Positions 2,872 through 63,245 of a stretch of DNA of 63,245 nt are shown in pieces (the stretch's first letter is position 1; every line of letters starts with the position of its first letter). Both the position numbers and the translations under genes were made by a program. This DNA comes from Nitrospiraceae bacterium (GTDB lineage: Bacteria > Nitrospirota > Thermodesulfovibrionia > UBA6902): positions 1 through 63,245 of the forward strand of contig QZKC01000094.1 of the NCBI GenBank assembly GCA_003599425.1. The letters are read 5' to 3'. The notes beneath the pieces are model-generated. The model was not told the origin of the DNA and did no database searches. It was given only the letters and a program-made list of their open reading frames with translations.

Positions 2872-2883
2872 TCAGCACATGCT

Positions 2884-3083: not shown

Positions 3084-3099
3084 AAATACCCTCCATATG

Positions 3100-4254: not shown

Positions 4255-4299
4255 AATTTGTCCCAATCTAATATATTCAAACTTAATTAGGAGATAGAA

Positions 4300-5178: not shown

Positions 5179-5181
5179 CGC

Positions 5182-6234: not shown

Positions 6235-6404
6235 AAAGAAACTGAGTCAAAAAATTTCAATAACAAATCCCGTTATAAATATCGGAAATGATTATAGCAT
6301 AATATCTTTACATTACAAACATTTTATTTGCTAATAAATTCATAACACAACACCTTGGTTTCAAAGCGTCACAGCTCAGAAGTTCGAAAGTGCGGAAGGC
6401 ATAA

Positions 6405-7637: not shown

Positions 7638-9464
7638 ATGTGCGGAATCGCAGGGATAATCTGCTGGGATAGACAAAAGATAGAAGAAGATGTTCTCTTG
7701 AGAATGAGAGATGTTATGACTCACAGAGGTCCTGATGATTCGGGTTTTTATATAAATGAAAGAAAGTCTGTTGCACTCGGGCACAGAAGACTTTCCATCA
7801 TTGATCTTTCTTCCCTTGGACATCAGCCTATGCTTGCTGAGGATGGCAATGTCTGCCTGGTATACAATGGAGAAATCTATAATTTCCTGGATATAAGAAA
7901 AGAATTGCGGGACAAGGGATATACCTTCAACTCCACAAGTGACACCGAGGTTATTCTGAAAGCCTATCAGGAATGGGGCGAACAGGCTTTTGAAAGATTC
8001 AATGGGATGTATGCCTTCTGCCTGCATGACAAGAAAGAAGATTTGCTCTATCTCGCAAGAGACCATGCCGGCATAAAGCCTCTCTATTATTCCTTAACAA
8101 AAGGGAACCTGATCTTCGCATCTGAGACAAAAGCATTTACCGCCTTCCATCCTCACTGGGAGAAAAACAGTGATTGGAAAATATACCTTTTAACTTTTGG
8201 GCACATGCCGGAACCTTTCACTACCCTGAATAACGTCTTTATGCTGCCCCAAGGAAGCCTTCTGCGCTTAGATATAGAAACCGGCAAACACGAAATCATG
8301 AAATTCAATCAAATTAATTTTTCCCAGAAGATAATAAATGAAAAAGATGCCCTTGAACAGGTAAGAGACACGTTCACAGAGTCTGTTAAAAGGCACCTTA
8401 TTTCAGATGCCCCGATAGGTGTATTTTTGAGCGGGGGAATAGATTCAAGCCTTATTGCGCTTGTTGCTAACACCTATCAAAAAGAAAACCTTCGAACACT
8501 GTCGATCATTTTTGATGAAAAAGAATATTCCGAGGAAACCTACCAGGATATTGTTCTGAAAAAAATGAACTCACATCATCATAAATATCTGGTTACGGAA
8601 AACGATTTTACAAACAATCTTGAAAATATATTTCAGGCAATGGACCAGCCGACAATTGACGGGGTCAACACATACTTCATAGCAAAGTGCGCCAAGGAAG
8701 ACGGGTTAAAGGCTGTTCTTTCGGGGTTGGGGGGAGATGAACTGTTTGGCGGGTATTCTTCTTTTACACGAATAGATCATTTATGGAAAGTTAAATGGTT
8801 AAGTAAAAATATCAGGAACCTTTTCAAATTAAGTGAATTTTCAGGGATTGATAAGTTTAAACGATTCTCATTTCTTTCAATGCAGGAACCCCTTTCTTTT
8901 TATCTTCTTTTGAGAGGCATATATACCCCAAAAACCGTTTCAGTGATTTTAGGATGTTCTGTTAACGATGTGCAGAAAGCAATCAAAAAACTGAATCCGG
9001 ATATCCATCAGCATCTTGGAAAACAAAACTTTGTAAGCTGTCTGGAAACAAACCTCTATATGAAAAACCAGCTTCTCAGAGATACGGATGTCATGAGCAT
9101 GAGGCATTCTGTTGAGGTGAGGGTGCCATTTCTCGACAGGAAATTAATAGAGACTGTTTTTTCCATCAGGGAAGATATTAAGTTCAGGAAAGATATCCCC
9201 AAGTTTCTGTTGGTAAAAGCATTTGAGCATATATTGCCAGAGGAGATCACAACAAGAAAAAAACAGGGCTTTACATTCCCTTTTGACGTCTGGATAAAGA
9301 AGCAGGGGAAGGGGCTTTTTGAAAACGCTGTATCAAAAGGCGGGATAAATAAAAAATATGCGGACAGAGTATGGAATGAGTTTCAGCAGGGGAATATCCA
9401 TTGGTCCAAGGTGTGGGCAATGGTTGTGGCAGCGGCCACATGTCCGTCTACAATGAATAATTAA
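7638..9464 (+). CDS. asnB: Asparagine synthase (glutamine-hydrolysing)-type amidotransferase, glycan-associated
   Basis: MCGIAG start at ATG 7638, HRGPD, LGHRRLSIIDL, VYNGEIYN, FLSGGIDSS, SGLGGDELF, EVRVPFLD. Confidence 0.93.
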   Translation: MCGIAGIICWDRQKIEEDVLLRMRDVMTHRGPDDSGFYINERKSVALGHRRLSIIDLSSLGHQPMLAEDGNVCLVYNGEIYNFLDIRKELRDKGYTFNSTSDTEVILKAYQEWGEQAFERFNGMYAFCLHDKKEDLLYLARDHAGIKPLYYSLTKGNLIFASETKAFTAFHPHWEKNSDWKIYLLTFGHMPEPFTTLNNVFMLPQGSLLRLDIETGKHEIMKFNQINFSQKIINEKDALEQVRDTFTESVKRHLISDAPIGVFLSGGIDSSLIALVANTYQKENLRTLSIIFDEKEYSEETYQDIVLKKMNSHHHKYLVTENDFTNNLENIFQAMDQPTIDGVNTYFIAKCAKEDGLKAVLSGLGGDELFGGYSSFTRIDHLWKVKWLSKNIRNLFKLSEFSGIDKFKRFSFLSMQEPLSFYLLLRGIYTPKTVSVILGCSVNDVQKAIKKLNPDIHQHLGKQNFVSCLETNLYMKNQLLRDTDVMSMRHSVEVRVPFLDRKLIETVFSIREDIKFRKDIPKFLLVKAFEHILPEEITTRKKQGFTFPFDVWIKKQGKGLFENAVSKGGINKKYADRVWNEFQQGNIHWSKVWAMVVAAATCPSTMNN

Positions 9465-9479
9465 AAAAGCGATATATAC

Positions 9480-10400
9480 ATGAAAAGAAAAGCGCTTATT
9501 GTTGGAGGGACCGGATTTGTAGGCCTTCACTTACAACATTGCTTACATGACAGATATAGTATTATGGCAACAGGCCGAAATGAAGATATCAGGGATGCTG
9601 CGATGATCAAAAACTTAGTAAGGAAAGCAACCCCTGATATTGTGATCAATTTGGCAGCGATCACCACGGTACGAGAGTCTTTTGAACGTCAATATGATAA
9701 TTATAATATTGGACTGTTCGGAACGTTAAACTTATTGCTGGCACTAAAAGATATAGCTTTTCAGGGACGAATGCTTCAGGTCGGTTCGAGTGAAGTATAC
9801 GGCTTTCCAGCTCCGGATCAGTTGCCCATCTCCGAATCAGAACCTTTGCGGCCTATGAGCCCTTATGCTGTAAATAAAGTTGCTATTGAAGCTCTTTGCT
9901 ATCAGTGGAGCCAGACAGAACAGTTTGAAATAGTAACGACAAGATCTTTCACGCATATAGGGCCGGGACAGAGCGATAGATTTGCAATATCAAATTTTGC
10001 CAGGCAGATAGCTGAAATAAAACAAATGAACATAGAGCCTGTTATTCATGTTGGCGATTTAAGCGCAACAAGAGACTTCACTGATGTCCGTGATATTGTC
10101 AGTGCATATGACCTGCTGCTTCAGAAAGGCAGGAATGGAGACATATATAATGTCTGTTCAAATCAGGAAGTATCTACACAGTGGATGCTGGAGAAACTAA
10201 TAGAACTATCAGGAGTAAAAGTAAAAATTATTCAGGACACAACGCGTTTAAGGACCTCTGAGCAGAGAAGAGTTTGTGGGAATAACAGAAAGCTGGTTAG
10301 AGATACCGGTTGGCAACAAATAATTTCACTCGAATCATCTCTTGCTGATATTCTGTCTTACTGGGAAAAGAACTTTGCTACATATAACGTGGAGTCTTAG
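9480..10400 (+). CDS. NAD-dependent epimerase/reductase, GDP-4-keto-6-deoxy-mannose reductase (Rmd)-like
   Basis: GGTGFVG, SSEVYG, PYAVNK, GDLSATRDFTDVRD. Confidence 0.8.
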   Translation: MKRKALIVGGTGFVGLHLQHCLHDRYSIMATGRNEDIRDAAMIKNLVRKATPDIVINLAAITTVRESFERQYDNYNIGLFGTLNLLLALKDIAFQGRMLQVGSSEVYGFPAPDQLPISESEPLRPMSPYAVNKVAIEALCYQWSQTEQFEIVTTRSFTHIGPGQSDRFAISNFARQIAEIKQMNIEPVIHVGDLSATRDFTDVRDIVSAYDLLLQKGRNGDIYNVCSNQEVSTQWMLEKLIELSGVKVKIIQDTTRLRTSEQRRVCGNNRKLVRDTGWQQIISLESSLADILSYWEKNFATYNVES

Positions 10401-10432
10401 AACAATTAACTACCTTCTACAGGAGACTTATT

Positions 10433-11698
10433 ATGCATTTGATTTATCGGAAAACATGCAGAATTTGCAATTCATCAGCTTTGACTAAAGTTATCGACCT
10501 TGGGGAACAGCATTTACAAGGTTCTTTTATTAAGGATGGCAAAGGAAATCCAGCTTTACGAAAAATATCCTTAGAGGTTGTCAGGTGCGACCCGACTGTT
10601 GATGAAAAGGCATGCGGCTTATTGCAGATGGCTGTATCAGTACCCCCGGTAGTATTATATTCGTCCTACTGGTATCGCTCCGGTACAAATCAGACCATGC
10701 ATGATCACTTGAAAGGAATTGCATCTGTTGCCACGGAGTTAGTCGGAAAAAAGAAATCTGCAGTTCTTGATATAGGGTGCAACGATGGCACCTTGTTGAG
10801 TTATTATCCTGAGGCATTTGTTAAGTATGGGGTAGACCCTTCAGATATTGCGCAGACCGTTTCAGGAGACATTACTGTTGTTCAGGATATTTTCCCGTCA
10901 ACAGAACTTAACAATCTTCTTGGAGAAACCCGTTTGGATATCATCACATCCATAGCAATGTTTTATGATCTTGAAGATCCGCTCTCATTTGTAAAGAACC
11001 TGAAATCAACTCTTGCTGATGACGGCATCTGGATCTTTGAGCAGTCTTATATGCCTTTAATGCTGAAAATGAATTCTTATGACACAATATGCCATGAACA
11101 TCTGGAATATTACAGTTTTGCGGTAATAGAAAATCTGCTGGCAAGAGCGGATATGAAGGTTTTCAGAGTAGAATTCAACGATATCAACGGCGGAAGCATT
11201 CGCTGCTACGCAACCCACAAGTCCAATTTTAAATTCAAGAGCCACGAAAATCAGCAGACACTGGAGCAGGTCCGGCAAGAGGAATTTGATCTTGAGCTTG
11301 ATACAGACAAACCGTACAAGAACTTTCAGGACCGCATTAATCTGCATAAAGAAAAATTGTCCTCGTTGCTGAAAGGCCTGAAACGTGAAGGGAAAAAGAT
11401 CCATGTTTATGGCGCTTCGACTAAAGGAAACACAATTCTGCAGTGGTGCGGCATTAACAATACAACCATTGATTTTGCCTCTGACCGGAATCCTGAAAAG
11501 GATGGTGCCAGAACCATCGGAACCAATATCCCGATCATAAGTGAAGAAAAATCAAGGGCCATGAACCCTGACTATTACCTTGTGCTTCCATGGCATTTTC
11601 GAGAAGAATTCCTGAAAAGAGAAAAGGCAATGATAGACAGGGGCACTGGCTTTATTTTCCCGCTCCCTGAAATTGATATAGTAAAAGTCAGAACATAG
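10433..11698 (+). CDS. NDP-hexose C-methyltransferase
   Basis: N-terminal CRIC zinc motif, LDIGCNDGTLL, DTICHEHLEYYS, YGASTKGNTILQ C-terminal domain. Confidence 0.88.
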   Translation: MHLIYRKTCRICNSSALTKVIDLGEQHLQGSFIKDGKGNPALRKISLEVVRCDPTVDEKACGLLQMAVSVPPVVLYSSYWYRSGTNQTMHDHLKGIASVATELVGKKKSAVLDIGCNDGTLLSYYPEAFVKYGVDPSDIAQTVSGDITVVQDIFPSTELNNLLGETRLDIITSIAMFYDLEDPLSFVKNLKSTLADDGIWIFEQSYMPLMLKMNSYDTICHEHLEYYSFAVIENLLARADMKVFRVEFNDINGGSIRCYATHKSNFKFKSHENQQTLEQVRQEEFDLELDTDKPYKNFQDRINLHKEKLSSLLKGLKREGKKIHVYGASTKGNTILQWCGINNTTIDFASDRNPEKDGARTIGTNIPIISEEKSRAMNPDYYLVLPWHFREEFLKREKAMIDRGTGFIFPLPEIDIVKVRT

Positions 11699-11701
11699 CC
11701 C

Positions 11702-12823
11702 ATGAAGATATTAGCACTTATCAGTGATGCATACGGAGGGCGAGGTGGTATCGCACTCTATAACAGAAATTTTCTCAGAGCCTTATGTGAGCATCCACAG
11801 GTGGTTCAGGTTATTGCAATCCCACGTGTCATAACCTATGATCCTGAGGAAGCACTGCCTTCCAAACTAAGATATTTGACAGAAGCAACGGGAAGCAAGC
11901 TGAATTATCTTGGCACCTGTCTGAAAGTGGCTGCAAGAGAAAGAAATATCGACCTGATCATCTGCGGTCATCTTCATTTGCTGCCTTTTGCTTTTCTGTT
12001 CAGATCTGTTTTAAAGGCACCAGTCCTCCCAATTGTTTATGGTGTTGAAGCTTGGAACCCTACCCAGCACCGGAGCGCCAATTTTTTATGCCGGAAACTG
12101 GACGCATTTATCTCCATTCGAACGTTTACAGCCCAGCAGTTCATTGAATGGGCGGGAATAGACCGTGCAAAGTATTATTATCTGCCGAACTGTATAGAAG
12201 AGTCCCGCTATGGTGTTGCCCCGAAGCGTTCTGATCTTCAGGAATGTTACGGTATCAAAAACAGAACTGTGATCATGACAGCAGGCCGGCTGGATACAGT
12301 TGATATGGAGAGGAACAAAGGGTTTGATGAGGTACTGGAAGTGCTGCCGGAATTGAGGGAAGAAATACCGGATATTGTATATCTGATAATGGGTGATGGC
12401 GATGACAGTGAAAGACTTGCCCATAAAGCCAGATTCCTCGGGGTTGAAGACATAGTGAGATTCACCGGATACATTCCTGAACGTGACAAAGCAGACCATT
12501 ACAGACTGGCTGATGTTTTCGCTATGCCGGGAAGCAACAGGCATTTTGACCGATATCCATTCAGGTTCGTATTTCTGGAGGCATTGGCCTGCGGGGTTCC
12601 TGTAGTAGGATGCCGACTTGAAGACAAATCCGAAGCTCATGACCCTTGTGCAAATCAACTGATAATCCAGGTTGATCCGAACAGCAAAGAGGATATCAAG
12701 AGGGGGATATTGAGCGCCCTCAAACAGCGTGCAGGCCACAGAACCGGGATCGAGAATTTCTACTACCCTGCTTTCAAGAGCAAGGTGCATGACATTATTA
12801 ACAACTACACCTTTACTGTCTAA
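11702..12823 (+). CDS. Glycosyltransferase family 4
   Basis: GT-B fold: TAGRL, KGFD, F(R)FVFLEALACGVPVV. Confidence 0.88.
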   Translation: MKILALISDAYGGRGGIALYNRNFLRALCEHPQVVQVIAIPRVITYDPEEALPSKLRYLTEATGSKLNYLGTCLKVAARERNIDLIICGHLHLLPFAFLFRSVLKAPVLPIVYGVEAWNPTQHRSANFLCRKLDAFISIRTFTAQQFIEWAGIDRAKYYYLPNCIEESRYGVAPKRSDLQECYGIKNRTVIMTAGRLDTVDMERNKGFDEVLEVLPELREEIPDIVYLIMGDGDDSERLAHKARFLGVEDIVRFTGYIPERDKADHYRLADVFAMPGSNRHFDRYPFRFVFLEALACGVPVVGCRLEDKSEAHDPCANQLIIQVDPNSKEDIKRGILSALKQRAGHRTGIENFYYPAFKSKVHDIINNYTFTV

Positions 12824-14040
12824 TGTTAGCAATACTTGCCACGCATCCGGTCCCCTATCAGGTTCCTGTCTGGAAAGCACTCGGCAGAGATGGAAGAGTC
12901 CCCTTTGAAGTATGGTATCTGACCCATCATGGAGTCAATGCAAGCTTCGATGGCGGATTTGGGAAGACCTTTGCATGGGACATTGATCTTCTTTCAGAAT
13001 ATAATTCAAGGTTGCTGTCGAACGGCCCCACTGTTCTTCCCGATGGTTTCATGGCATTGCGCCTTGATAAGTGCTTCAGGCAGATGCTCAGGGGAAAAAG
13101 AGTAAAAGCATTATGGATACAGGGCTGGCAGGTAAGGGCTTACTGGGAGGCTGTCTGGCAGGCCCGCGCGGAAGGCATACAGGTGTGGTTAAGGGGTGAA
13201 AGCAATGATCTGGCCCCTTCCTCTTTTATAAAAAAGTATCTCAAGAAAGTACTTCTGGGTCAGTTGTTCAGAAGGGTCGATAATTTTCTATATATCGGGA
13301 AAGCAAACAGAAGATTATATGAGAGCTATGATATTCTTCCAGAGAAACTCCATCCGGCCCCTTATTGTGCAGACAATCGTCGCTTTGCTCAGCAGGCAAA
13401 ACTGCTGCTGCCCAGACGTGCCCACATCCGAAAGACATGGAAAATCCCTGAAGAGGCCTTTTGCGTTCTGTTTGTCGGAAAGTTTATTCCCAAGAAACGT
13501 CCTCTGGACCTTGTCTCCGCTGCCCGCTCTACGTTAATAAAGAAAATGAAAGCGCCATTACATCTTGTCTTTACAGGGTCTGGAGAACTTGGAGACCAGC
13601 TCAGGGCAAACTGCAATGTTTTATTTGACGCCGAGAGTCCTGCGCCCGCTGAAAAAATTACGAACAGCAACGGGCTTCCCTCAGCATCATTTGTCGGTTT
13701 TCTGAACCAGACCGAAATATCAAAGGCATATGTTGCCGCCGACTGTATGGTGCTGCCAAGCGACCATGGCGAAACGTGGGGCCTTGTCGTCAACGAAGCA
13801 CTTGCAAGCGGATTACCGTGCGCGGTCAGTTCCCGTGTTGGCTGCGGAGAAGATGTTGTTGCTACAATGAACCCCCGCCTCAGGTTTGGTCTTGGGGATA
13901 TAGAGGGTCTCGCAAACGCACTGCTGGAGCTGAACAGTCAGCGGTATTCACGTGAAGACGCACAGGCTCAGGTTGAAAAATATAACACTGAAGCGACCGT
14001 AGACACTGTAGTAAAACTGTATCATCAGGGGAAAAAATGA
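12823..14040 (+). CDS. Glycosyltransferase family 4
   Basis: LFVGKFIPKK, ETWGLVVNEALASGLP. Confidence 0.88.
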   Translation: MLAILATHPVPYQVPVWKALGRDGRVPFEVWYLTHHGVNASFDGGFGKTFAWDIDLLSEYNSRLLSNGPTVLPDGFMALRLDKCFRQMLRGKRVKALWIQGWQVRAYWEAVWQARAEGIQVWLRGESNDLAPSSFIKKYLKKVLLGQLFRRVDNFLYIGKANRRLYESYDILPEKLHPAPYCADNRRFAQQAKLLLPRRAHIRKTWKIPEEAFCVLFVGKFIPKKRPLDLVSAARSTLIKKMKAPLHLVFTGSGELGDQLRANCNVLFDAESPAPAEKITNSNGLPSASFVGFLNQTEISKAYVAADCMVLPSDHGETWGLVVNEALASGLPCAVSSRVGCGEDVVATMNPRLRFGLGDIEGLANALLELNSQRYSREDAQAQVEKYNTEATVDTVVKLYHQGKK

Positions 14041-51964: not shown

Positions 51965-53110
51965 TCAGTTTCTTGATGTATGACATACGTTGCATCCTGA
52001 TATGGCGGCTGAAAGAGTTGAACTCCTGTAATTCCATCTCATCATATCATCATTATCAGTTGCATGTGCGGCATGGCAGGACAAGCACATGACCGCAGTT
52101 CCAGAACCCGGGGTTACTGTGCTGCTCATTGAGCTGGGAACTGTCGTTCTTGCAACAGGTATGGTTATATTGTACGCTGTATAGCTTGCATATTCACCGC
52201 TATTAGGCAATATCACATCTGTGGGGTGCCGAAGGAAGGGTGAAGTAGTATCATCCCCTATACCCTGTGAATTATCCAGTTGATTAATAACATGGAATGC
52301 CCGGTGACATGTCCCGCAAAAACCGCTCATAGTATTGTTGGAGACCTTTATCCCGCCCGAACCTATTGGAGCAACATGACAAAGACCCGTACAGTCTCCG
52401 TTGTAAACAACCGGAGCAGTCGCTCCAAAGTATTCATTGTGGTTCGATGCATCAAAGTTCTGCCACTTCGTAGATGCACTGACCTGACCGTCGTTTTCGT
52501 ATCCCATGACTGAATACAAAAATCTGTAGCTATTGTACGTCTGGTCCGCAACATCGATCTTTCCGCTTGTGTTTTTGTGGTGAGCGCCTTTCACCCCGCC
52601 AGAGCTTGAACGGATACCATGACATCCTCTCGCACCGGCGCAGTTGAGTGTCGACCCGAAATTACTCACCGGCGCATGATAACCCGGAGGCCCGGCCAGC
52701 GCCCCTGTTAATGTATTATCAAGATTGCCAAGGTCTATAACATTATGACCTTTGTTGTCTGAGGCTCCGCTGCCTTTGGTCCCGAGCACATAGGCAAAAT
52801 TACCTCCAGCAAGATCAGCAGACGCACTGCTGTGATATACCTGCGGCGCTCCGGTGACAGGGTCAATATTGCTTGCGGCACCTGAGCCATGACAGCCCAA
52901 ACACCCGCCCAATGTCAGTGCGTCGTACGGCCCGGTACCTTTCCATGGCTGACCTGAAGCACCATATGTAGCCACTGCCGAACCACCCTGGCTGTTATGC
53001 ATTGTATGACATGTGCTGCACGCACCCGATATGGCTGTATTTCCATAATCAGCGGGGGTGCAGATAACGGCCAGCAAGATGACGATATATTTTAAAGTTT
53101 TCATTGACAT
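51965..53110 (-). CDS. OmcS-like multiheme cytochrome (5 CxxCH plus CX5CH plus CX3CH)
   Basis: Motif order matches OmcS as recalled: CxxCHTMHNS.GG, CL.CH, GG.F..V, KGHN, L.C..CH, MS.[FW]C..CH..[FI]H, LRHP, V.CLSCH.AHA...M.R.N, terminal C..CH. Confidence 0.75.
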
Positions 53111-53181: not shown

Positions 53182-54468
53182 CTACATTCTGTGACATTGT
53201 ATGCAAAGCGCCCTGTTCCGGTCAGCAGTAAGCATAAAATCAGCTCTCGCTGCATGCATACTATGGCATGAATTACAGGTGACAGGCCCTCCGCTTCTTG
53301 GATCCACTATATTTGGCCCAACCGGATGCGTAACTTTATGTTGCGATTCATGGCATCGCACACACATAGCAATCTCATCATCCCTGTAATTGAGCGGCCG
53401 GTCTGAATGCATCGGGATGTGGCACTCAAAACATTTCCTGTTTTTTACAGGAGCACACCCTACTGATTTCAGGGCCTTCTCCATTGCAGCAGTGTTTCTC
53501 TCGGTCTTCTCATGGCATCCCGAGCAAATCTTTGTTTCGCTTGCGGTAAAACTCTTCTTCCCGGATGCGTGGGAGTCATGACAAACAACACATGAATTCT
53601 TTGCATCTTTCACATGGATATCGCTGCTGACATATTTCAATTGTGAGTCATCCTTTTTATGACAATCGAGGCATACTCCCTCGCCTTCTTTTTTAGTCGT
53701 TATCCTGCTTCCCGGAGTAATAGGATTGTGGCACTGGCTGCATTCCTTGTCCAGAAAGGCCTTATGTCCATAAGGGCCAAGCGCTCCTTTTATCTGTGAT
53801 CCGTGACCTGAGTGGCATGATGTGCAATCTGATACAGCTACTTCAGAGACAATGGACACTTCACCTGCCCTGCATCTGGGTGCATGACACTCGCGGCAAA
53901 GCTTATTCGGAGCAGAAATCAGCAAAAACTCCTCCGAAGACCCGTGCGAATTATGACAGGATGAACATTGGCCTTTCTTGAAAGGCGAGCATCCATATGG
54001 CTTATCCATCTGTGCTTCTATGTTTTCATGACAACCAATACAAAGGTCTTTCTCAGCATTTACAAGAAGGTTCGTATAATTGCCGCTATGTGGGTAATGG
54101 CATTTTGTGCAGAGATCGTCCCTGAGCGGACTATGGACGCTTTGGCTTTTCAGAAGATTACGGATCTTTTCATGACAGCCGATACAGACAGAATTAACAT
54201 CATCCATCAAACCCTTGACATTCCCGGCATGGGAATTATGGCAGGTTAAGCACTTGCCCTCTCTGAAAAGAAAGTGAACAGCAGGGGATGAAAGTTTTTC
54301 TTTCAGTTCCCTGTGACATTCATAGCAGAGGCCGGGGACAGATGATTTCAGCTTGACCTCAGCAGGAGCAGGAGAATACCCAAGAGGCATAAGAAAATAA
54401 ATTATTATGAAGAGGACAATCTTGATTTTGAGGTTTTCAGTGGCACGCATCGCAGTCTCCTTCCGCAA
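53182..54468 (-). CDS. 16-heme periplasmic cytochrome c (doubled-CXXCH/cytochrome c3-like repeats)
   Basis: 16 CxxCH counted by hand, with CxxCHxxH repeats; start may be ATG 54447. Confidence 0.92.
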   Translation of the reverse strand: MRKETAMRATENLKIKIVLFIIIYFLMPLGYSPAPAEVKLKSSVPGLCYECHRELKEKLSSPAVHFLFREGKCLTCHNSHAGNVKGLMDDVNSVCIGCHEKIRNLLKSQSVHSPLRDDLCTKCHYPHSGNYTNLLVNAEKDLCIGCHENIEAQMDKPYGCSPFKKGQCSSCHNSHGSSEEFLLISAPNKLCRECHAPRCRAGEVSIVSEVAVSDCTSCHSGHGSQIKGALGPYGHKAFLDKECSQCHNPITPGSRITTKKEGEGVCLDCHKKDDSQLKYVSSDIHVKDAKNSCVVCHDSHASGKKSFTASETKICSGCHEKTERNTAAMEKALKSVGCAPVKNRKCFECHIPMHSDRPLNYRDDEIAMCVRCHESQHKVTHPVGPNIVDPRSGGPVTCNSCHSMHAARADFMLTADRNRALCIQCHRM

Positions 54469-56410
54469 CCGGCTTGTGAAGAATATTTTTCAGCAGTCCT
54501 GGTTTTTCCGTCACATGCGGGACATGACAGGTCAAGCAATGGCCGATCTTCGCTATCGGCTGAGTATGTGCTTTAAGAAGATTCCCGGTATCCTCTGAAT
54601 GGCATTGCACGCATAAAGCAGGATCCTTGGCACTCAGCAAATATTTTGAATCAGAATAGTGGGGGAAATGGCAGCTCAGGCAACTCCCCTCCTCCAACTG
54701 AAGGTGCCCTTTCCTCGTTTTTGCAGTTATGATCCTCTCATGACATGAGAGACAAAGCTCATTTGGCTTGTTCAAAAGCTGATATTTGAGCTTGGTACCA
54801 TGAGGACTGTGACAGGACGTACAGTTGCCGTTTTCTACAGGCAGATGTTTGTTGCTGCTCTTATACGTTTCGGTCTCCATTTTCTTATGGCATGTATAAC
54901 AAAGCTCCTTCACCGGCCTGGTGATGACCCCGGTGAAATCACTCGCATGGGGATCATGACATTCATTACATTTTTTATCCCTGAACAGGGGATGCCCGCC
55001 GCTTTTATCAACTCTCAGGAACATGCTCTCATGGCATTTGATGCAAACCTGCTCCGGCGGCCTGCTCAATAATTTTTCAAATGAAGACGCATGTGATCTG
55101 TGGCAGGAACCGCACGCTCTCTTTGCTACCGGGGTGTGGACATATATTTTGAAAAAATTTTTCTCTTCTTTCTGGTGACAGGTATAACACAGATCAACAG
55201 GGGAAACCTTCATCATATATGGATATCCAGTTCCGTGTGAATCATGGCATTTTGTGCATTCAAGACTGGAGAAAGGTTCATGGGAGAAGGCCATTTTCAA
55301 TTCATCACGCACTCCCTGATGACAGGTAAAACACAACTGCTTCTGTGAAGCTTTAAGGTAATACGGATTTTCAGATGCATGAGGATCGTGGCAGGCTGTA
55401 CAGCCCTGCTTTTTGATCGGGTCATGCACATGTGACACGTTTATCTTAGGTTTTTCAGCGTGGCACTTCATGCACAGAGCATTTTTATCCTCTCTGGTGA
55501 TCTTTGGATAATCAGAGGCATGAGGGCTGTGACACGTGATGCACTCTCCTTTTTCTGTAACCGGATGCCTGTATGCTGTCCGGTATGAACGCTCTTCTTT
55601 TTTATGACAGGAATAACAAAGTGAGCTGCCTGAAGCTGTCAGACCGAACGGCTCCGGATCAGTCGCTGGCCTGTGGCAGGAACTGCATTGAGCGAGTCTT
55701 AACGGTTCATGAACAGATTCTCTAAGCAATTTATCATTGGAGGAACTGTGAGGAGCGTGGCAGTCTGAACAGTGTGATCGCTCAACCGGATAATTCTTGT
55801 GGGCATTATTAAAAACAGAAGACTTGTAATCATGGCAGGAGCTGCATAACTCCCTCTCTTCCTTAATGAGGTTGCTCTTGAACTGAGACCCATGGGCTGC
55901 ATGACAGGCGAGACAGCCATCCTCAAGCGCTTTATGCTGTCTGGGCCGGGCAAAAGAAGTTTTATCATGACAGACAAAACATTGCCCGCTTCCTGTATTT
56001 TTTTGCAAAGACTTATTGTCTGAAGCATGCGGATCATGGCACGGAAGACATACTCCGTTTTTCAGGGCAGTATGGACACTGGACATTTTCTGGACATCTG
56101 AAGCCATCTGTGAATGGCACGTGTAACAGAGTTTCCTCTCTTCTTTTTCCCTGAATGATTTGACTGCAAGCTTTCCATGCCTGAGGTGGCAGGACTCACA
56201 GTCCTGTTTACTCATCGGATCATGGACATACTTCATCTTAAAAGCATCCTGCTTTTCCTTATGGCAGTCCATACAGGGCTTTGGCGCAAATTTCTTCCTC
56301 ACCTGCGGTTCAGGGGCACAGGAAACGAAAATAGCTGTTATCAGAACTGTCAGAATTAATTTAAAAATGTTATGAGGATTAATTCTTTCCACCTTTGAAC
56401 CCTTTTTCAA
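54437..56410 (-). CDS. 26-heme cytochrome c lipoprotein
   Basis: 26 CxxCH counted by hand; lipobox FVSC. Confidence 0.92.
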   Translation of the reverse strand: MKKGSKVERINPHNIFKLILTVLITAIFVSCAPEPQVRKKFAPKPCMDCHKEKQDAFKMKYVHDPMSKQDCESCHLRHGKLAVKSFREKEERKLCYTCHSQMASDVQKMSSVHTALKNGVCLPCHDPHASDNKSLQKNTGSGQCFVCHDKTSFARPRQHKALEDGCLACHAAHGSQFKSNLIKEERELCSSCHDYKSSVFNNAHKNYPVERSHCSDCHAPHSSSNDKLLRESVHEPLRLAQCSSCHRPATDPEPFGLTASGSSLCYSCHKKEERSYRTAYRHPVTEKGECITCHSPHASDYPKITREDKNALCMKCHAEKPKINVSHVHDPIKKQGCTACHDPHASENPYYLKASQKQLCFTCHQGVRDELKMAFSHEPFSSLECTKCHDSHGTGYPYMMKVSPVDLCYTCHQKEEKNFFKIYVHTPVAKRACGSCHRSHASSFEKLLSRPPEQVCIKCHESMFLRVDKSGGHPLFRDKKCNECHDPHASDFTGVITRPVKELCYTCHKKMETETYKSSNKHLPVENGNCTSCHSPHGTKLKYQLLNKPNELCLSCHERIITAKTRKGHLQLEEGSCLSCHFPHYSDSKYLLSAKDPALCVQCHSEDTGNLLKAHTQPIAKIGHCLTCHVPHVTEKPGLLKNILHKPVAEGDCDACH

Positions 56411-58118
56411 ATGAATCCAGGTTTTCAGGATACATTATTATTTCAGCATCCTGTCTCAGTTTGTCCGTATAGCCGCTGAGGAGCTCATTGAACTTCTTCC
56501 GGAACAGTATCGCCTGGATTGAAGATTTTACTTTACTGAAATCCTCAGGCTCTCTCCTGCTCTTTTCCTGAAGCATGATGATCTTGTAAAACTCAGCGTC
56601 TTCAATTATGGAGCTTATATCGCCGGGATTCATTGAGTCAATAATTTCCTGTAACGGCCTCGGAAGACCCGATTTCATTGACCATCCAGCATCCCCTCCC
56701 TGCAGGGCATAAGAATCAGCAGATCTTGTTTTTGCAAGCCATGAGAAACTCGCGCCGCCCTTCAGGCTGCTCTCAATATCTTGGGCTTCCTCCCTTGTCT
56801 TTAAGGTGATCTGCTGGATTTTATACGTATAAGGCTTTAAGAACTCATCCTGATGATCTGTATAATACGTATTTAAATCTTCATCAGATATTATTATCTT
56901 CGGGACGAGTACAGTAGTAAAGAATGTATTTTTAAGGATCTGCTCCTTATATCGCCTCGCCATATCTTTCAGATCAGATGTTGCGGTATATTGGCGCCTC
57001 AGAGCTTCAATATCAACCAGCTTTTTATCAAGCCAATGGTTCAAAACCGCTTCTTTATTGCGGCTTGTACCGGAAAGCATGGCAGTAAAAGCACCTGCGG
57101 TGAGAACCGTATCTTCAACCTCTACCAATGGCCTCTCATCCTTTAGCCATGTTTCCCTTGCTTCATTCTTTCCGTCAAATACAATAGCAGACAAGATATC
57201 ATCATGTACCATTGGTTTGATCGATCCACGGAGAGACCTGAGATATTCAGCACTACGCTCTTTTATCATCTGCTGTTTGGCCTCATGCGTGATCTTTTCC
57301 CTGATCTTTTCCAGGTCCTCAACGGGGGCCTCCTGCCGGCTGATCAATTTCAGGATGTAATATTTATTGCCGTTTTCGATAACACCGCTGAACTCTCCTT
57401 CTTTGAGAGAGGCAACAGACTCATCAAATTTTGTTCCGAGGGAGTTCCTTGTCATGACAATTTCAGTTTGATCTTTCAGGACATGAGGGGTATGTCCCTT
57501 TGCCATGTCGCTGAAATTGCTCCCGCTTCGCAGTTGTTCAAGGATCTTTTCTGCTTCCTCGCTGGTATTTGCCTCGATAACGGAAAGAGTAAGCCGCTCA
57601 TAGTTCTTCCTGTAATATCCTCTGATATCTTCTTCATCTACAGATACTTTATGCAGGATCTCCTCATCGTAGAGCCTTGTTACCGACTCCCTGAGAATAT
57701 ACGCCTCTGTTTTCTGCCTCACTTCTGGAAATTCTTCCATATTCATGTGCTTCGCTTCCTGCACGATCAGTTTGTCGTCTATGAGTTTTTGCAGATAGTC
57801 ATGTAAGTTAAGAGACTGGGCGGATGACATGTCCTCCCTCCTGTGCGATATCTCAAGTGAATACACGTAGTCTCCTGTCGTGACAGGTTCACCATCAACA
57901 AGCACGAGAATATCGCTTTTGTGAGGCAATGACGCGCATCCAAATAAAAACAAAACAAAAAGCAGGGGATACAGGAGAAAAAAAAGAGGATTTACGGAGT
58001 TATAAAGCAGTCGCGACATGGCGATTACACTGTTTTGTATCTTCGCCGACAGCAGCTTGACTGCCTTTATGTTGAACACTCTGAATGCTAAATTTATTGT
58101 TTGCTCGGTCATTCTCAC
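56379..58118 (-). CDS. SurA/PpiC-type peptidyl-prolyl isomerase lipoprotein with two parvulin-like domains
   Basis: Lipobox LFGC; GSNFSDMAK and GASFSWLAKTRSADSYALQGGDAGW; true start possibly ATG 58019. Confidence 0.85.
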   Translation of the reverse strand: MRMTEQTINLAFRVFNIKAVKLLSAKIQNSVIAMSRLLYNSVNPLFFLLYPLLFVLFLFGCASLPHKSDILVLVDGEPVTTGDYVYSLEISHRREDMSSAQSLNLHDYLQKLIDDKLIVQEAKHMNMEEFPEVRQKTEAYILRESVTRLYDEEILHKVSVDEEDIRGYYRKNYERLTLSVIEANTSEEAEKILEQLRSGSNFSDMAKGHTPHVLKDQTEIVMTRNSLGTKFDESVASLKEGEFSGVIENGNKYYILKLISRQEAPVEDLEKIREKITHEAKQQMIKERSAEYLRSLRGSIKPMVHDDILSAIVFDGKNEARETWLKDERPLVEVEDTVLTAGAFTAMLSGTSRNKEAVLNHWLDKKLVDIEALRRQYTATSDLKDMARRYKEQILKNTFFTTVLVPKIIISDEDLNTYYTDHQDEFLKPYTYKIQQITLKTREEAQDIESSLKGGASFSWLAKTRSADSYALQGGDAGWSMKSGLPRPLQEIIDSMNPGDISSIIEDAEFYKIIMLQEKSRREPEDFSKVKSSIQAILFRKKFNELLSGYTDKLRQDAEIIMYPENLDSFEKGFKGGKN

Positions 58119-58178: not shown

Positions 58179-59252
58179 TTATTGTGACAGTGCTTTCTTC
58201 ATCTGTTTCACCATTGATGAGACGACGTTATAGGCAACCCTGTCAGCTGGCTCTTTCTCTCCCCATTCAAAGGCAATGACATTCTTTTCGCTGTTTAATC
58301 GAGACGTATTATACCACAGTATTTTGTTATTACGGGCATCCAGCAGCCTTGCAGTCATTGATATTACCGATGCAGTTGAGGTATCGGATCCTGAGGGATA
58401 GCTCTCTACAGTGCCGAGGAGTACCGTGTCCGCGTCCAGTTCTTTTGATAACTCCTCCATCCTTTTGTAATCAAGTTCCCCGTTGCTCCTCACTTGCAGT
58501 TCAACTAGCATTTTTCTGACATCCCCGAATTCGATAGGCTCAAAAGGGGCCTGTTTCAGAAGTTCTACCAGGAACATATACATCGCAACCATGCCGGCCC
58601 CGTCAAATCTGCTTTTGTTCTGAAAAGGGATAACGGCCACTCGATATGTTGTCTCCTTTTCCCTCTTCGCAGGTGAAACGTGAAAAGACTCCAGAAGCCT
58701 ATCAAGCGCTCCTGGAACAAGTTTCTCCACTTCCCTGGTCCTGCCCAATCCCAGGATTGAGGTAACATCTGCACCGCTGACAAAGGCATAATCCGCCCAG
58801 ACAATAAGGCCGGTAGTTGTGTCAATAAGCCGTGCTACGAGGCCTACATGCGGGTCATCTCCTGAAAAAAATGAAATTATCGAACCTGTAAGAATGCTCT
58901 GCACCTGAAATTCCTCATACAGTTTACGGGCCGTTTCTCCCGATACATACCCTGCAAGCCTCGACCTCTCCTTGCAAAGGAACTCACTGACTGCATCCTC
59001 ATCCATTACCTCAAACCCTCTTGTCTGCAGTTCTGCCTTTAACGCGGGAATAAGCTTTTCCCCGGCTCTCTTGTCAACGCTGAAGTTATCGAAAACAAGG
59101 ATAGCAATCTTTCCGCCTGTGCTTTGGAGCGGGCTCTCAACGAGGGGGGTATCTGTTTCCGCTGCTGTGACAAAAGGAAACCCTGTAAGCAGCAAAGCAG
59201 TTGATGCAATAAGGATTATAATTATCGTACAGTTCTTAGCAAACATTTTCAT
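58179..59252 (-). CDS. Protein with two tandem CsgG/LpoB-like domains
   Basis: KIAILVFDNFS...GSI...ARLIDTTTG.IVW and RVAVIPFQNKS...LGTV...ARLLDARNNKILW. Confidence 0.7.
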   Translation of the reverse strand: MKMFAKNCTIIIILIASTALLLTGFPFVTAAETDTPLVESPLQSTGGKIAILVFDNFSVDKRAGEKLIPALKAELQTRGFEVMDEDAVSEFLCKERSRLAGYVSGETARKLYEEFQVQSILTGSIISFFSGDDPHVGLVARLIDTTTGLIVWADYAFVSGADVTSILGLGRTREVEKLVPGALDRLLESFHVSPAKREKETTYRVAVIPFQNKSRFDGAGMVAMYMFLVELLKQAPFEPIEFGDVRKMLVELQVRSNGELDYKRMEELSKELDADTVLLGTVESYPSGSDTSTASVISMTARLLDARNNKILWYNTSRLNSEKNVIAFEWGEKEPADRVAYNVVSSMVKQMKKALSQ

Positions 59253-59290
59253 ACTGTTACTCCCGGCGCCCGTACAAATTTTCCAGATTT

Positions 59291-59872
59291 TTACTGTCTT
59301 TTGAGCGTCTGTACCATTCCCCGTATCAAAACCATAACCGTCTCGCTCATGGTTTCCGATTTTGCGCCAAAATGTCGAGCCATAAAGTCAGCACCTCCGC
59401 GCGTTCCGGTCATGGACCAGACAATATTGCCTGACCCCGTGTCCGCCATCATCAAGGTAATGGTCGCCTCAGGAGCAGAGACATTCCCTATACGGGTCTC
59501 CCCGTACTTTTCGACAGCCCCAATAATAAGCCCCTCAACCTGTAGCGACTTGCCGATGGCCTGTATCTGCTTTTCATTTAAAGATGAAATGTTCTTTATA
59601 TCAAGGTCATTCAGCGCCGTCATAACCTCCCCGGGGACAATAACATCAACCAGCCCTGAAGCAAGCAATTCACTGGTGACTATCTGCCTAACGATGTCTG
59701 CCGCCGCCCTTTCAGGGGTCAGATTGTCTAAAGGCATAACCGCAACCTTTTTGAAATAACTGAAATCAATGTCTTCACGTATATGGTAAACAGGGGCGCT
59801 GCTGCGACAGCCCGAAACAATCACTACAACGAACAACATAAGGGTCAATATACATTTCTTCATCATATTCAT
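59291..59872 (-). CDS. CsgG/HfaB/GNA1162-like lipoprotein
   Basis: Lipobox VSGC; KVAVMPLDNL, VEGLIIGAV, DTGSGNIVWS. Confidence 0.7.
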   Translation of the reverse strand: MNMMKKCILTLMLFVVVIVSGCRSSAPVYHIREDIDFSYFKKVAVMPLDNLTPERAAADIVRQIVTSELLASGLVDVIVPGEVMTALNDLDIKNISSLNEKQIQAIGKSLQVEGLIIGAVEKYGETRIGNVSAPEATITLMMADTGSGNIVWSMTGTRGGADFMARHFGAKSETMSETVMVLIRGMVQTLKRQ

Positions 59873-59883
59873 AACGCTTCTCC

Positions 59884-60504
59884 TTAAAATAAATTATCGA
59901 ATGCCTCTTTTATGACATTCCTGGAAACTTCGCCCAGCGTAGCAATTTCTGCCCCGAAATGTCTTGTCCAGAATCCCGGACCTCCGCTCGTATGCCATGT
60001 TGACCAGAGTACCTTGCCAGTTGCCGATTCATACAGCGTGAGATAAACCGACACCTCGGGATAGGAAACCGATATCCCCCTGCTTATTTGATATACACTA
60101 ACTGAGCCGCCCATAATCCCATCTACCTTCAAGGCTTCACCTATCTCCTGAATGTCCGATGGCGTCAATGCTTTCAGGGAACTGACCCTCATCTCCTGCA
60201 GCACCCTCCCGACCTCTCCAGGTTCTGTAACATCTATCCCACGTGACAGGAGTTCGATGCCTGTAATGCTGCCTATCTTTTCATCAGCATATCCATCGGT
60301 AGTGTAGTTTTCAAAGGGAAGAACTGCAATACTCTTAATGTGTTTTACATCAGTGTGGGGACGGCTATAGTGTTTTACTCCGCCGCTGCATCCACAGATA
60401 AAAACCAGACATACATAAAAGAGCAGTTTTCTTTTATCCCTCAGCATCATTTTTAGTTCTAATCTCCCGAAACTGTTCTGAAAATCCCGTTTATTATAAG
60501 GCAC
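59884..60504 (-). CDS. CsgG/HfaB/GNA1162-like lipoprotein
   Basis: Lipobox-like ICGC; SIAVLPFENY, VDGIMGGSV, ESATGKVLWS; paralog of the neighbouring gene. Confidence 0.7.
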   Translation of the reverse strand: MPYNKRDFQNSFGRLELKMMLRDKRKLLFYVCLVFICGCSGGVKHYSRPHTDVKHIKSIAVLPFENYTTDGYADEKIGSITGIELLSRGIDVTEPGEVGRVLQEMRVSSLKALTPSDIQEIGEALKVDGIMGGSVSVYQISRGISVSYPEVSVYLTLYESATGKVLWSTWHTSGGPGFWTRHFGAEIATLGEVSRNVIKEAFDNLF

Positions 60505-60508: not shown

Positions 60509-62773
60509 TCAGAATCTGCAATTTATATTTGCGGTTACGTTATAGCTTTCGGTTTTATTTTCTTCGCTTGTAACTGTATATCCTGAGGAGAGCCTTAGAT
60601 CGGCAAACTTTGTTATATACCAGATCCCGAAACCATTGATCGTGTCTGTTGTTGTCGGCACCGGGTCAGCTTTGCTGTGCTGGTATCCAAGGTTCAGCCT
60701 TATGGCCGGCAACGGAAGCCAGTCTGCTGTTATTCCTTCGGAAATGGTACTGTCGCCGTCTGCGTCAGTAAAATTAAAGTTGCCCGACAGATTGATAAAC
60801 TGTCCCGGCTGATAGTTGACGATCAGAAGTACATTCTTTGAATCAATAGAATCCTCTTCCGATAATGTATTGGTTATGCCGTAATTCAGATTCCCCGTAA
60901 TGGTGCGGGTGATCCGGGCATTGACCGTCCCGTTTATGAAACTGGTTTTTGATGATGACGTGTTAGATAAAAAGGATTCCGTTTCGGTATATCCGATATC
61001 ATTGATCATGTTGATATACCGGTACAGTTGCGCTCCGATGCTTAACAGATATGAATTACTGACAGAGTCTTTTTCATTAAAATTATATCGTTCGCTCCTG
61101 ATGAGCGAAAGGTTTGTATCAAGCGTCGAAAGGGGGTTAGAATGAAAAGACAGGGAATAAGTATCCAAATACGTATCTATATCATTCTGATTGTCAAAGT
61201 TCTCATTTTTCTGAAACCGTGCCGTTGTGGTAAGCAGCCTGTGCGTCTGCCATATGGCTCCTATGCCAACGTCCCTTGTAATGTTGCTCCTGAAACCAGA
61301 CCCGCCATCCTCTATGGCCTTATCAAAGATGTTTGTAAGTAAACCGCTGAGGGAGCTGAGATAGGACTCCTGGTTCTGATCCCTCCTTTCCACAGAATAA
61401 TCCAGCGTCAGGGTAAGTTTCTCATGAGGATTGGCACCGGCATTGAAGTTCAGCCTCTGGTTGAAGGACCTGAATACATCACTATCCTCACTGTCCGTTA
61501 TGTTGTCCGTGCCGTATGCCTCAATTTCCGTAACAAAAACGTTGGGATTGAGAATGCCGGAAGTCACGAGATTAACCGCCTTAAAGAATGAAGCATTATG
61601 GGGAGAGGAGAACTCTATTTCGAAACGGTATATATTGTTCAGTGCGTCAAATACGATAACCTTAACATCACTGATCGCTATTTGTGTCCAGGTGCCGCCC
61701 TGATTGAAGTCGCTTTTGTAAATATTCCATTGTGCGGGGTTATCAAGTATGTCGTTGAATACATTCGTGGTACTGCTAACATAAATGAACAGCCTGTCCA
61801 CAGGTCTTTGTGAGGATACTGATACCCCAATGTTATGGAGTTTATTGTTCGGATTTGAACTGCCGAGATCGATACCTGTGCTCACATCGAAAATTTCGTT
61901 TGTTAAAACCCCATTGGAAGTTAAAATACCAATATCGGTCGTTACCCCATCGTGCGCATATAGTCCGGTCGCGGACCTCTTAAGGATTACCGTACCTGTC
62001 TGAGATGCAAATTGCCGCGTTTTCCCCCGTGAAAAATTACCCTGATAACCCACAAAATAACGGGATCTCATGAAGCGGAATGAATCTGAATAACCGACAT
62101 TGTACGTACCTGAAAAATTCTCGCTGATCGTCTTTTCAATAGCTGTAAGCGGGGTCCTGTCAGTTGCATGAGTATAGTTCAAGTGAAATCTGAGATCCAC
62201 AGCCTGTGAAGGCATCACATAGGTTGAGCTGACGGTATAGGTATCATTTGTATGGTCAATGTCATCGACTGAATCATGGTCGTAATCCTTTTGTTTGTCA
62301 TAATAAACTGAAAGAGACGGCAAGGAAACCGGATTCAGGTTAAAGCGTGAAAAGTAAAATTCTGATGTTTCTCTGCCTTCATCAGACAGGCGTGCTGTTG
62401 TCCAATCCTCTTCTCTCCTGTATCCAACGTTGAAGTCGTAGATAGAGTTGCGAAGAAAGAATGTAATGCCCGGCTCCAGGAGCCTCCGATTTGATTCTGT
62501 TGTAACGCTGGATTGACCGCTTGAACTGGAATCTATAAGATTTGCCCTCAAGTTAAACTGATATGACAGAAGCGGCGTAAGGTATTGCTCCATGTTCAGA
62601 TAATAATTCTGGTTGAGGGTGTCGCTGGATGATATCTTTTCTCCGTCCTGAACTACCCATGAATTATTATTGGATATATTTATCAGCCCGTTAATACCTT
62701 CAGAACAGGCAAGAGAGCGGCTTAGAATAAGCGCTATAGACATAACTGCAATTTTCCATGCCTTATGCCTCAT
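60509..62773 (-). CDS. Outer-membrane beta-barrel protein with an inserted globular domain
   Basis: Signal peptide, many amphipathic beta-strands, C-terminal YNVTANINCRF ending in Phe. Confidence 0.75.
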   Translation of the reverse strand: MRHKAWKIAVMSIALILSRSLACSEGINGLINISNNNSWVVQDGEKISSSDTLNQNYYLNMEQYLTPLLSYQFNLRANLIDSSSSGQSSVTTESNRRLLEPGITFFLRNSIYDFNVGYRREEDWTTARLSDEGRETSEFYFSRFNLNPVSLPSLSVYYDKQKDYDHDSVDDIDHTNDTYTVSSTYVMPSQAVDLRFHLNYTHATDRTPLTAIEKTISENFSGTYNVGYSDSFRFMRSRYFVGYQGNFSRGKTRQFASQTGTVILKRSATGLYAHDGVTTDIGILTSNGVLTNEIFDVSTGIDLGSSNPNNKLHNIGVSVSSQRPVDRLFIYVSSTTNVFNDILDNPAQWNIYKSDFNQGGTWTQIAISDVKVIVFDALNNIYRFEIEFSSPHNASFFKAVNLVTSGILNPNVFVTEIEAYGTDNITDSEDSDVFRSFNQRLNFNAGANPHEKLTLTLDYSVERRDQNQESYLSSLSGLLTNIFDKAIEDGGSGFRSNITRDVGIGAIWQTHRLLTTTARFQKNENFDNQNDIDTYLDTYSLSFHSNPLSTLDTNLSLIRSERYNFNEKDSVSNSYLLSIGAQLYRYINMINDIGYTETESFLSNTSSSKTSFINGTVNARITRTITGNLNYGITNTLSEEDSIDSKNVLLIVNYQPGQFINLSGNFNFTDADGDSTISEGITADWLPLPAIRLNLGYQHSKADPVPTTTDTINGFGIWYITKFADLRLSSGYTVTSEENKTESYNVTANINCRF

Positions 62774-62879: not shown

Positions 62880-63245
62880 TTATTTCGGGAATACCGCGAT
62901 CCCGTAGGGTCTGTTGCCTACCGGTATAACCATTTCTTCTTTCCTTGCGGTCTTATCAACTACAGAAACACTGTTTGACCCCCTGTTGACCACATAAAGC
63001 TTTATTTCCTCAGGGTCAAGAATAAAAGAACGGGGAGCATCTCCTACCGCAACCACCCCCATGACCGGCGGAGTTACCGTTTTCAAAGCAGCGGAACCTT
63101 CTGTAAACGGCCGTACGATCATGATCTCACCTGGTCTTTCTTTTAAAAGGTAAAGCCTGTCAAACACAGGATCAGAAATGACACCTGTTATGGAGGTCCC
63201 GACATTGTTGATAGCGCTAACCGCATTCTCATCCTCTCCTTTTAT
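62880..63245 (-). CDS. YVTN/YncE-type beta-propeller protein, C-terminal part (runs off the window)
   Basis: Frame open to the window edge; VAVGDAP..., LYVVNRGSNSVSVVD, IPVGNRPYGIA. Confidence 0.85.
   Translation of the reverse strand: MKGEDENAVSAINNVGTSITGVISDPVFDRLYLLKERPGEIMIVRPFTEGSAALKTVTPPVMGVVAVGDAPRSFILDPEEIKLYVVNRGSNSVSVVDKTARKEEMVIPVGNRPYGIAVFPK

Follow-up and report, generated by a model that had tools for sequence, protein, structure and literature searches.

The window analysed here is a 63,245-nucleotide stretch of DNA from a Nitrospiraceae bacterium (QZKC01000094.1, positions 1-63,245), and all feature coordinates refer to it. The subject of this study is the span 58179-60504, which consists of exactly three open reading frames (ORFs) on the minus strand, encoding proteins of 357, 193 and 206 amino acids (aa), together with the genes that accompany them. 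In the order of reading, the three genes encode the lipoprotein F1 (59884..60504, minus strand; 206 aa as listed), its paralogue F2 (59291..59872, minus strand; 193 aa) and the double-domain protein G (58179-59252, minus strand; 357 aa). The first two are OscF-like and the third is OscG-like, in the nomenclature of osc, the omcS-companion cluster of Geobacter sulfurreducens, with which the locus is compared below. They lie within a tightly packed, co-directional run of nine genes on the minus strand, with gaps of 4 to 60 nucleotides or short overlaps, whose reading order is a beta-propeller gene fragment, an outer-membrane beta-barrel, F1, F2, G, a peptidyl-prolyl isomerase (PPIase), a 26-haem cytochrome, a 16-haem cytochrome and an OmcS-like cytochrome.

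A preliminary description of this DNA, made from its letters, had proposed that the three genes hold four related domains, and the comparison of family profiles bears this out. With hhalign, the F1 family aligns with the F2 family at an E-value of 1.6e-65 and with the N-terminal domain of the G family at 2.7e-24, while the F2 family aligns with the C-terminal domain of the G family at 5.1e-21. Each domain comprises about 145-160 aa. In G, the N-terminal domain occupies about aa 45-192 (58677..59120, minus strand), and the C-terminal domain about aa 199-357 (58182..58658, minus strand). The pairwise identity among the four domains is 17-21%, and their homology is far beyond chance. The sequence motif by which they had been recognized holds in part. 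Its first half, [KR][IV]A[IV]x[PV][FL]xN, is present at all four domain starts, that is, in three strict copies (KIAILVFDN, RVAVIPFQN and KVAVMPLDN) and one variant with Ser in the first position (SIAVLPFEN), and it is absent outside these four sites in the six-frame translation of the window. The second half, however, is shared only loosely. Both domains of the 357-aa protein retain ARLxD (ARLIDTTTGLIVW and ARLLDARNNKILW, the latter with NN replacing TG), and in the two lipoproteins this half is further degenerate (LMMADTGSGNIVW and LTLYESATGKVLW).

The two smaller proteins had also been described as paralogous lipoproteins accompanied by one double-domain protein, which agrees with the conservation of their signals. 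Throughout both small families (28 homologues for F1 and 35 for F2), the lipobox Cys never varies; it is Cys39 in F1, with the lipobox ICGC, and Cys22 in F2, with the lipobox VSGC. The GTG codon listed as the start of the 206-aa gene probably precedes the true start. We prefer Met18 or Met19 (near 60450), since such a start gives a normal lipoprotein signal peptide (MMLRDKRKLLF...) and the residues before it differ widely among the homologues. The G protein of the window carries an ordinary signal peptide of the signal peptidase I type and lacks the lipobox Cys; some of its homologues have a lipobox. In F1 and F2, about 17-23 residues separate the lipobox Cys from the first strand of the domain. 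LpoB has a long linker between its anchor and its domain, and the spacing seen here is therefore too short for a linker of the LpoB type. The F-type lipoproteins also have a strongly conserved C-terminal loop, GGxxFxxRHFG, encoded at 59884-59980 in F1 and at 59291-59400 in F2. The loop takes the form GGIxxxDR[LM][FL]GGGG in the clade of single-F proteins described below and is lacking from both domains of the G protein. The loop may serve for contact with the barrel or the cargo.

The fold of the domains was examined with AlphaFold2 (AF2) and Foldseek. The AF2 model of the 357-aa protein, a single-chain prediction built on 34 homologues, has one alpha/beta domain at about residues 48-190 and another at about 203-356, with a predicted local distance difference test score (pLDDT) of 85.5 and a predicted template modelling score (pTM) of 0.82. 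The top single match of this model in the PDB is GNA1162 (4hrv; E-value 1.8e-8, target TM-score 0.68), accompanied by PelC of the PelB-PelC exporter of Pel polysaccharide (5t0z, 5t10 and 5t11, and the PelBC complex 9h80), with E-values from 4e-8 to about 1e-6 and target TM-scores of 0.62-0.77. FlgT, CT253 and the N-terminal domain of TolB rank below these. CsgG comes next, with an E-value of about 2e-5 and a target TM-score of 0.38-0.50, and then LpoB, with 6e-5 and 0.67. The sequence profiles lead to the same relatives. In hmmsearch against the PDB sequences, the F2-family profile matches PelC (5t11, 2.2e-8; 9h80_C, 1.3e-4) and LpoB (0.01), and the G-family profile matches PelC (4.8e-5) and GNA1162 (3.6e-4). 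In Pfam, the C-terminal domain of G gives weak and overlapping matches to GNA1162-like (2.8e-8), FlgO (4.8e-7), CsgG (9.8e-6) and LpoB (5.8e-5), and F1 has a weak GNA1162-like match. The domains thus belong to the fold class of TolB-N, LpoB, CsgG and PelC, and are nearest to PelC and GNA1162. The trait of PelC of being an outer-membrane lipoprotein is found in F1 and F2 but not in the G protein of the window.

In the preliminary description, the domains had been called CsgG-like and the locus a curli-like channel. As a statement of family membership, this label finds no support. If the locus encoded a true CsgG-type channel, the four domains would build the membrane-spanning pore by themselves and the barrel gene would be incidental. 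The Pfam CsgG match on the 357-aa protein does exceed the gathering score (25.5 versus 20.8 bits), and CsgG structures are among the fold matches. However, the Pfam match is found in one of the four domains and covers profile positions 9-107 of 210 only, and the domains themselves are of the modest size given above. The membrane-spanning hairpins of CsgG, as placed from its structures, lie in the second half of the profile. Because the match is confined to the first half, the part that forms the pore is lacking here. In addition, the target TM-scores of CsgG are lower than those of PelC and GNA1162, and in 60 or more loci a separate barrel gene is a constant neighbour of the F and G genes. CsgG family membership was rejected on the basis of the half-profile match, the lower TM-score and the separate barrel, and a CsgG-type channel at this locus seems to us extremely improbable. 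Consequently, the three proteins are better described as a PelC-like lipoprotein set beside an OscE-type barrel, for which a PelBC-like ring under a barrel would be a better analogy than CsgG.

Could the set instead serve envelope housekeeping or polysaccharide export, with no role for cytochromes? In that case the proteins would be LpoB-like activators, TolB-like factors or parts of a PelBC-like exporter. PelC is indeed the best solved relative, and there are weak Pfam matches to LpoB, TolB_N and GNA1162. The LpoB family is weakly matched by 30 of the 35 members of the F2 family and marginally by the window proteins (23.5 and 21.1 bits versus 22.3). Among the 71 database relatives of the 357-aa protein, of which the few with a named organism come from metagenome-assembled genomes (MAGs) of Nitrospirae/Nitrospirota, the label given by the Joint Genome Institute is often 'TolB-like protein'. 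On the other hand, the NCBIfam equivalog of LpoB, TIGR02722, has a cut-off of 110.55 bits, far above the 25.2 and 22.3 bits that the window proteins score. Glycosyltransferase and pel genes are absent from the block, and the linkage of the set to the PPIase and multihaem cytochromes is retained across at least six phylum-level labels. The LpoB and TolB readings were rejected given the distance from the TIGR02722 cut-off and the higher rank of PelC and GNA1162. A best match of the LpoB or TolB_N type, which would have spoken against the preliminary description, is not what we found; the searches lead to PelC, a ring-former. A housekeeping or polysaccharide role without cytochromes is hardly to be expected here.

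Directly upstream of F1 lies the OscE-like outer-membrane beta-barrel gene (60509..62773, minus strand), which encodes a protein of 754 aa with a signal peptide. Its presence beside the three genes had been noted from the sequence, and the AF2 model (pLDDT 87.8, pTM 0.62) confirms the barrel fold, with about 28-30 strands in the DSSP strand list. The chain runs through 11-12 strands, a beta-sandwich insert of about 140 residues between strands (about residues 274-411, window 61540-61955) and about 18 more strands, and ends in the C-terminal signal ...NCRF. The equivalent insert of a paralogous barrel on another contig of the same genome, C57, weakly matches the F5/8 type C (discoidin-like) family. 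By standard barrel geometry, 28-30 strands correspond, as a rough estimate, to a lumen of about 4 nm, roughly as wide as a subunit or filament of the OmcS type. According to the synteny table, the position of the barrel gene directly upstream of the F and G genes is fixed in the 60 or more loci mentioned above. The barrel is without a Pfam or NCBIfam family match, and since Foldseek returned only generic large barrels with low TM-scores, it could not be assigned to a family. The best TM-score is that to MtrB of the Mtr complex (6r2q_B; 0.37 by query and 0.42 by target), with TonB-dependent receptors and the PapC usher next in rank.

The match to MtrB brings in another explanation, that the locus encodes an electron conduit. 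Like the MtrB sheath around MtrA, the barrel would enclose the 26- or 16-haem cytochrome, which a scaffold of the PelC-like proteins would clamp, and the OmcS-like filament would be wired to the outer end. Besides the TM-score of the barrel, the conservation of the 26- and 16-haem cytochromes, which are kept in the block as much as the barrel is, agrees with such an arrangement. However, the match to MtrB is weak and generic, as the TonB-dependent receptors and PapC reach similar scores, and we know of no porin-cytochrome conduit that has PelC-like lipoproteins or a dedicated PPIase. Moreover, the Geobacter literature, insofar as it is represented by papers citing the osc study, gives OscE, OscF and OscG a role in secretion. 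We regard the conduit, the main rival of the export reading, as improbable, though it is compatible with export, and both may hold at once.

Behind the double-domain gene lies the gene for an OscH-like periplasmic chaperone or PPIase of 579 aa (56379..58118, minus strand), a position that is conserved in the synteny table. The rotamase identity suggested by the preliminary description is confirmed by Pfam (Rotamase_2, 7e-32; Rotamase, 7e-20), since the protein has two parvulin domains of the PPIC type, as well as a SurA-N-like region that is weakly matched. It is followed by an OscI-like 26-haem periplasmic cytochrome of 657 aa (54437..56410, minus strand; 26 CXXCH motifs, Paired_CXXCH 1.8e-135) and an OscJ-like 16-haem cytochrome of 428 aa (53182..54468, minus strand; 16 CXXCH motifs). 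The last gene of the run encodes a cytochrome of 381 aa (51965..53110, minus strand), the probable cargo, with five CXXCH sites, one CX3CH site and one CX5CH site. This protein has no direct match in the PDB. It is 24% identical, over 414 columns and with an E-value of 1.4e-9, to the canonical OmcS homologue of the same genome, and it is assigned to the OmcS family through this transitive link. At the other end of the run, the C-terminal fragment of an OscD-like YNCE/YVTN beta-propeller is encoded by an open-ended ORF (62880..63245, minus strand), the gene exceeding the contig end. In the BLAST synteny table, the fragment is 52-71% identical to the ORF that immediately precedes the barrel gene in most of the close Nitrospirota loci. 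One such homologue, of 557 aa (locus L001), matches a YNCE-like beta-propeller and DUF4382. A second propeller gene is found upstream of the YNCE/OscD-like propeller in L001 (2994-4013, with NHL repeats) and in L087 (5685-6713, with weak beta-propeller matches only); the contig of the window stops short of this position.

The conservation of the block was examined by a scan of genome contigs, which yielded 80 loci (L001-L080) with no G. sulfurreducens record among them. The full nine-gene block is present in about 55 Nitrospirota/Thermodesulfovibrionia loci according to the BLAST synteny table. Beyond these, more divergent forms of the block are seen in Thermodesulfobacteriota, Desulfuromonadales, Acidobacteriota, Deferrimicrobia, Schekmanbacteria and others. 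In the Desulfuromonadales loci L070, L072, L073 and L075, one or more hexahaem cytochromes are followed by the propeller, the barrel, one lipoprotein, a double-domain lipoprotein, the PPIase, and the 26- and 16-haem cytochromes, whose motif numbers are likewise 26 and 16. For example, two hexahaem cytochromes precede the block in L073 (Desulfuromonadaceae), and one of them matches OmcS (6ef8) with an E-value of 1.6e-60. The F and G proteins of the window are 22-31% identical to their counterparts in these OmcS loci, and the gene order of the window equals that of the four loci with their OmcS homologues. Two loci depart from the full block. On the complete Nitrospiraceae MAG chromosome CP070644 (L053), the G, PPIase, 26-haem and 16-haem genes are present with no barrel or F gene upstream. 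In L067, F and G only are found, adjoining a gene that is response-regulator-like and probably of the sigma-54 type, and the integrase-like and phage-like genes upstream of them may reflect rearrangement.

The osc cluster of G. sulfurreducens has been reported recently (Shen et al., 2025, Cell Chem Biol 32:239), and is described here as it appears in papers that cite that study. In such a paper, the proposed roles in Geobacter are folding for OscH, secretion for OscE, OscF and OscG, and filament morphology for OscD, and GSU2501, GSU2495 and GSU2494 are given as oscC, oscI and oscJ, respectively. In older annotation, GSU2497 is a 'lipoprotein' and GSU2499 a 'hypothetical protein', and a YVTN propeller gene is situated between GSU2497 and omcS. 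By counting gene order, the propeller of our locus would correspond to OscD, the barrel to OscE, the single-domain lipoproteins to OscF, the double-domain protein to OscG, the PPIase to OscH, and the 26- and 16-haem cytochromes to OscI and OscJ; OscE, OscF and OscG would then be about GSU2499, GSU2498 and GSU2497. We are highly confident that the locus is an osc-type module. The kind of system was published for Geobacter in 2025, and the present locus is its duplicated-OscF form in Nitrospirota. In the preliminary description, the proteins were inferred to export or anchor haem-loaded nanowire subunits, with chaperoning by the PPIase. This idea fits the published osc model, as far as the citing papers convey it, and the cross-phylum synteny with OmcS-family cytochromes, although it is consequently not new.

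The duplication of OscF sets the locus apart. In the domain tree, all F domains form one clade (support 100/99), the N-terminal domains of G form another (97/92), and the C-terminal domains of G cluster with support of 95/82, a value that holds with two rows set aside that had picked up an F ORF. Inside the F clade, F2 (100/95) and the single-F proteins (100/99) each form a clade, and F1 is less resolved (77/93). The four-domain form, that is, F1, F2 and G, occurs in Nitrospirota and a few Thermodesulfobacteriota-type MAGs, and the three-domain form, F and G, in Desulfuromonadales and others. The number of F genes goes together with the type of cytochrome. A CX5CH site in the OmcS-like gene is present in 38 of 40 two-F loci but in none of 10 one-F loci, all 10 of which have six CXXCH in that gene. 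It should be noted that these counts refer to loci with a readable OmcS-like gene and that the loci are related to one another, so that they express an association and not a statistical proof.

Both forms can even be found in one genome. The assembly that contains the window (2.9 Mb in 106 contigs) has a second, classic osc-like cluster on contig C57 (L087, C57:4000-22539; ORFs 736-13993). Its OmcS homologue (6853-8103) is a canonical hexahaem protein that matches 6ef8 with an E-value of 1.3e-108, and the cluster also has a YNCE propeller, a barrel of 734 aa, one F lipoprotein and one G lipoprotein, as well as a PPIase, a 26-haem cytochrome and a truncated OscJ-like (16-haem-type) cytochrome that are divergently transcribed. 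The F proteins of the window and of C57 are 33% identical (E-value 1.4e-26), and the G proteins 27.7% (1.2e-36). The MAG DeMMO3_26 likewise has both forms (L024 and L076). That the number of F genes tracks the cytochrome type, and that both forms stand side by side in one genome, is expected if each outer-membrane module matches its own filament subunit. The covariation points to cargo-matched modules.

With the four-domain homology, the PelC/GNA1162-like fold, the lipoprotein status of F1 and F2, the barrel fold and the linkage with OmcS-family cytochromes all observed here, the best explanation is that F1, F2, G and the barrel are the outer-membrane part of a machine for an OmcS-family cytochrome filament, to which we give a probability of roughly 0.7. 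In such a machine, Sec would carry the cytochrome into the periplasm, where it would receive its haem and where the OscH-like PPIase with its two parvulin domains would fold or hold it. By analogy with PelC and PelB, F1 and F2 would be anchored in the inner leaflet of the outer membrane and, together with the soluble two-domain G, could form a PelC-like oligomeric collar or vestibule beneath the barrel of about 28-30 strands. The wide barrel would pass folded subunits or the growing filament and then hold the base of the filament, as the published Geobacter hypothesis has it, while the 26- and 16-haem periplasmic cytochromes might feed electrons to that base. In the literature on OmcS, a porin-like pathway is the current hypothesis, large barrels are reported in most OmcE and OmcS regions, and the way in which folded, haem-loaded cytochrome filaments traverse the outer membrane and remain attached to it is still called an unanswered question.

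Several points weigh against this explanation. Relatives with the same fold include monomers, such as LpoB and the N-terminal domain of TolB, beside the ring-formers PelC, CsgG and FlgT/FlgO. The barrel is without a close solved relative, and its best match, MtrB, is the sheath of an electron conduit and not a secretion pore. Its insert, as modelled, could be either a periplasmic plug or an extracellular cap. An electrostatic funnel in the style of PelC is not indicated, as none of the components, whether putative ring protein, barrel or cargo, is basic; all are acidic or close to neutral. Finally, the equivalence with Geobacter is drawn from gene order, from Desulfuromonadales relatives at 22-30% identity and from second-hand accounts of Shen et al. 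(2025).

A closed ring of the PelC type, built by the F and G proteins, is a tentative proposal from structural analogy, with chances a little short of even. More specific, and rather unlikely, is the possibility that F1, F2 and G form a pseudo-symmetric hetero-oligomeric ring, for example of 3 x 4 = 12 domains, versus 4 x 3 in the classic F and G form, which would be docked under the barrel of about 30 strands and whose composition would be matched to the cargo. If that were true, ring and barrel together would be an outer-membrane machine of a class of its own, one that handles filament subunits already folded and loaded with their cofactor. The four-domain rings would serve the seven-site OmcS variant with CX5CH and the three-domain rings the canonical hexahaem OmcS, and one cell would run two nanowire export systems that are not interchangeable. 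Apart from this, the PelC-like lipoprotein components offer a concrete structural model of a ring under a barrel; the four-domain form with duplicated OscF exists and tracks a distinct OmcS subfamily bearing CX5CH; and the presence of both forms in a single Nitrospirota genome provides a natural set-up in which the cargo specificity of export modules can be addressed.

Compared with known systems, the locus resembles the PelB-PelC exporter most in its small components. PelC is the best match by sequence profile and the best match by fold after GNA1162, and F1 and F2, like PelC, are small outer-membrane lipoproteins encoded beside a barrel. The ring of 12 PelC subunits beneath the PelB barrel is a direct structural precedent for the ring under a barrel proposed here. 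However, this block has no pel genes, the set being accompanied by cytochrome, PPIase and propeller genes; its barrel greatly exceeds the PelB porin in size and is without the tetratricopeptide repeat region of PelB; several paralogous domains replace the one PelC; and the presumed cargo is a folded haem protein rather than a polysaccharide. With CsgG (PF03783; 4uv2, 4q79 and 6l7c) the locus shares a periplasmic alpha/beta domain of the same class, a marginal Pfam match above the threshold and outer-membrane lipoproteins like those of a fibre-secretion system, but the region of the pore hairpins is missing, a separate barrel is encoded and the structural similarity is below that to PelC and GNA1162. 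GNA1162 of Neisseria (PF05643), the C-terminal domain of LpoB, the N-terminal domain of TolB and FlgT/FlgO share the fold and the N-terminal strand motif xIAVLPFxN, in other genomic contexts and with other functions. The MtrB-type porin (6r2q) is likewise a large barrel among multihaem cytochrome genes and gives the highest TM-score for the barrel model, but this score is only about 0.4, and the barrel of the present locus has more strands, the beta-sandwich insert, and PelC-like proteins and a PPIase as companions.

The closest likeness is to the osc cluster of Geobacter. The gene order from D through E, F, G, H and I to J, beside OmcS-family cytochromes, is the same, and so is the proposed role, as given in the papers citing the osc study, namely to secrete or anchor cytochrome nanowires with the help of a PPIase chaperone. 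Nevertheless, with F duplicated into F1 and F2, three genes here encode four domains, where the osc cluster has three domains in two genes. The G protein has 357 aa versus about 480 aa in L070 and L073, and that of the window is not a lipoprotein. The cytochrome gene lies downstream and has CX3CH and CX5CH sites, and the host belongs to Nitrospirota.

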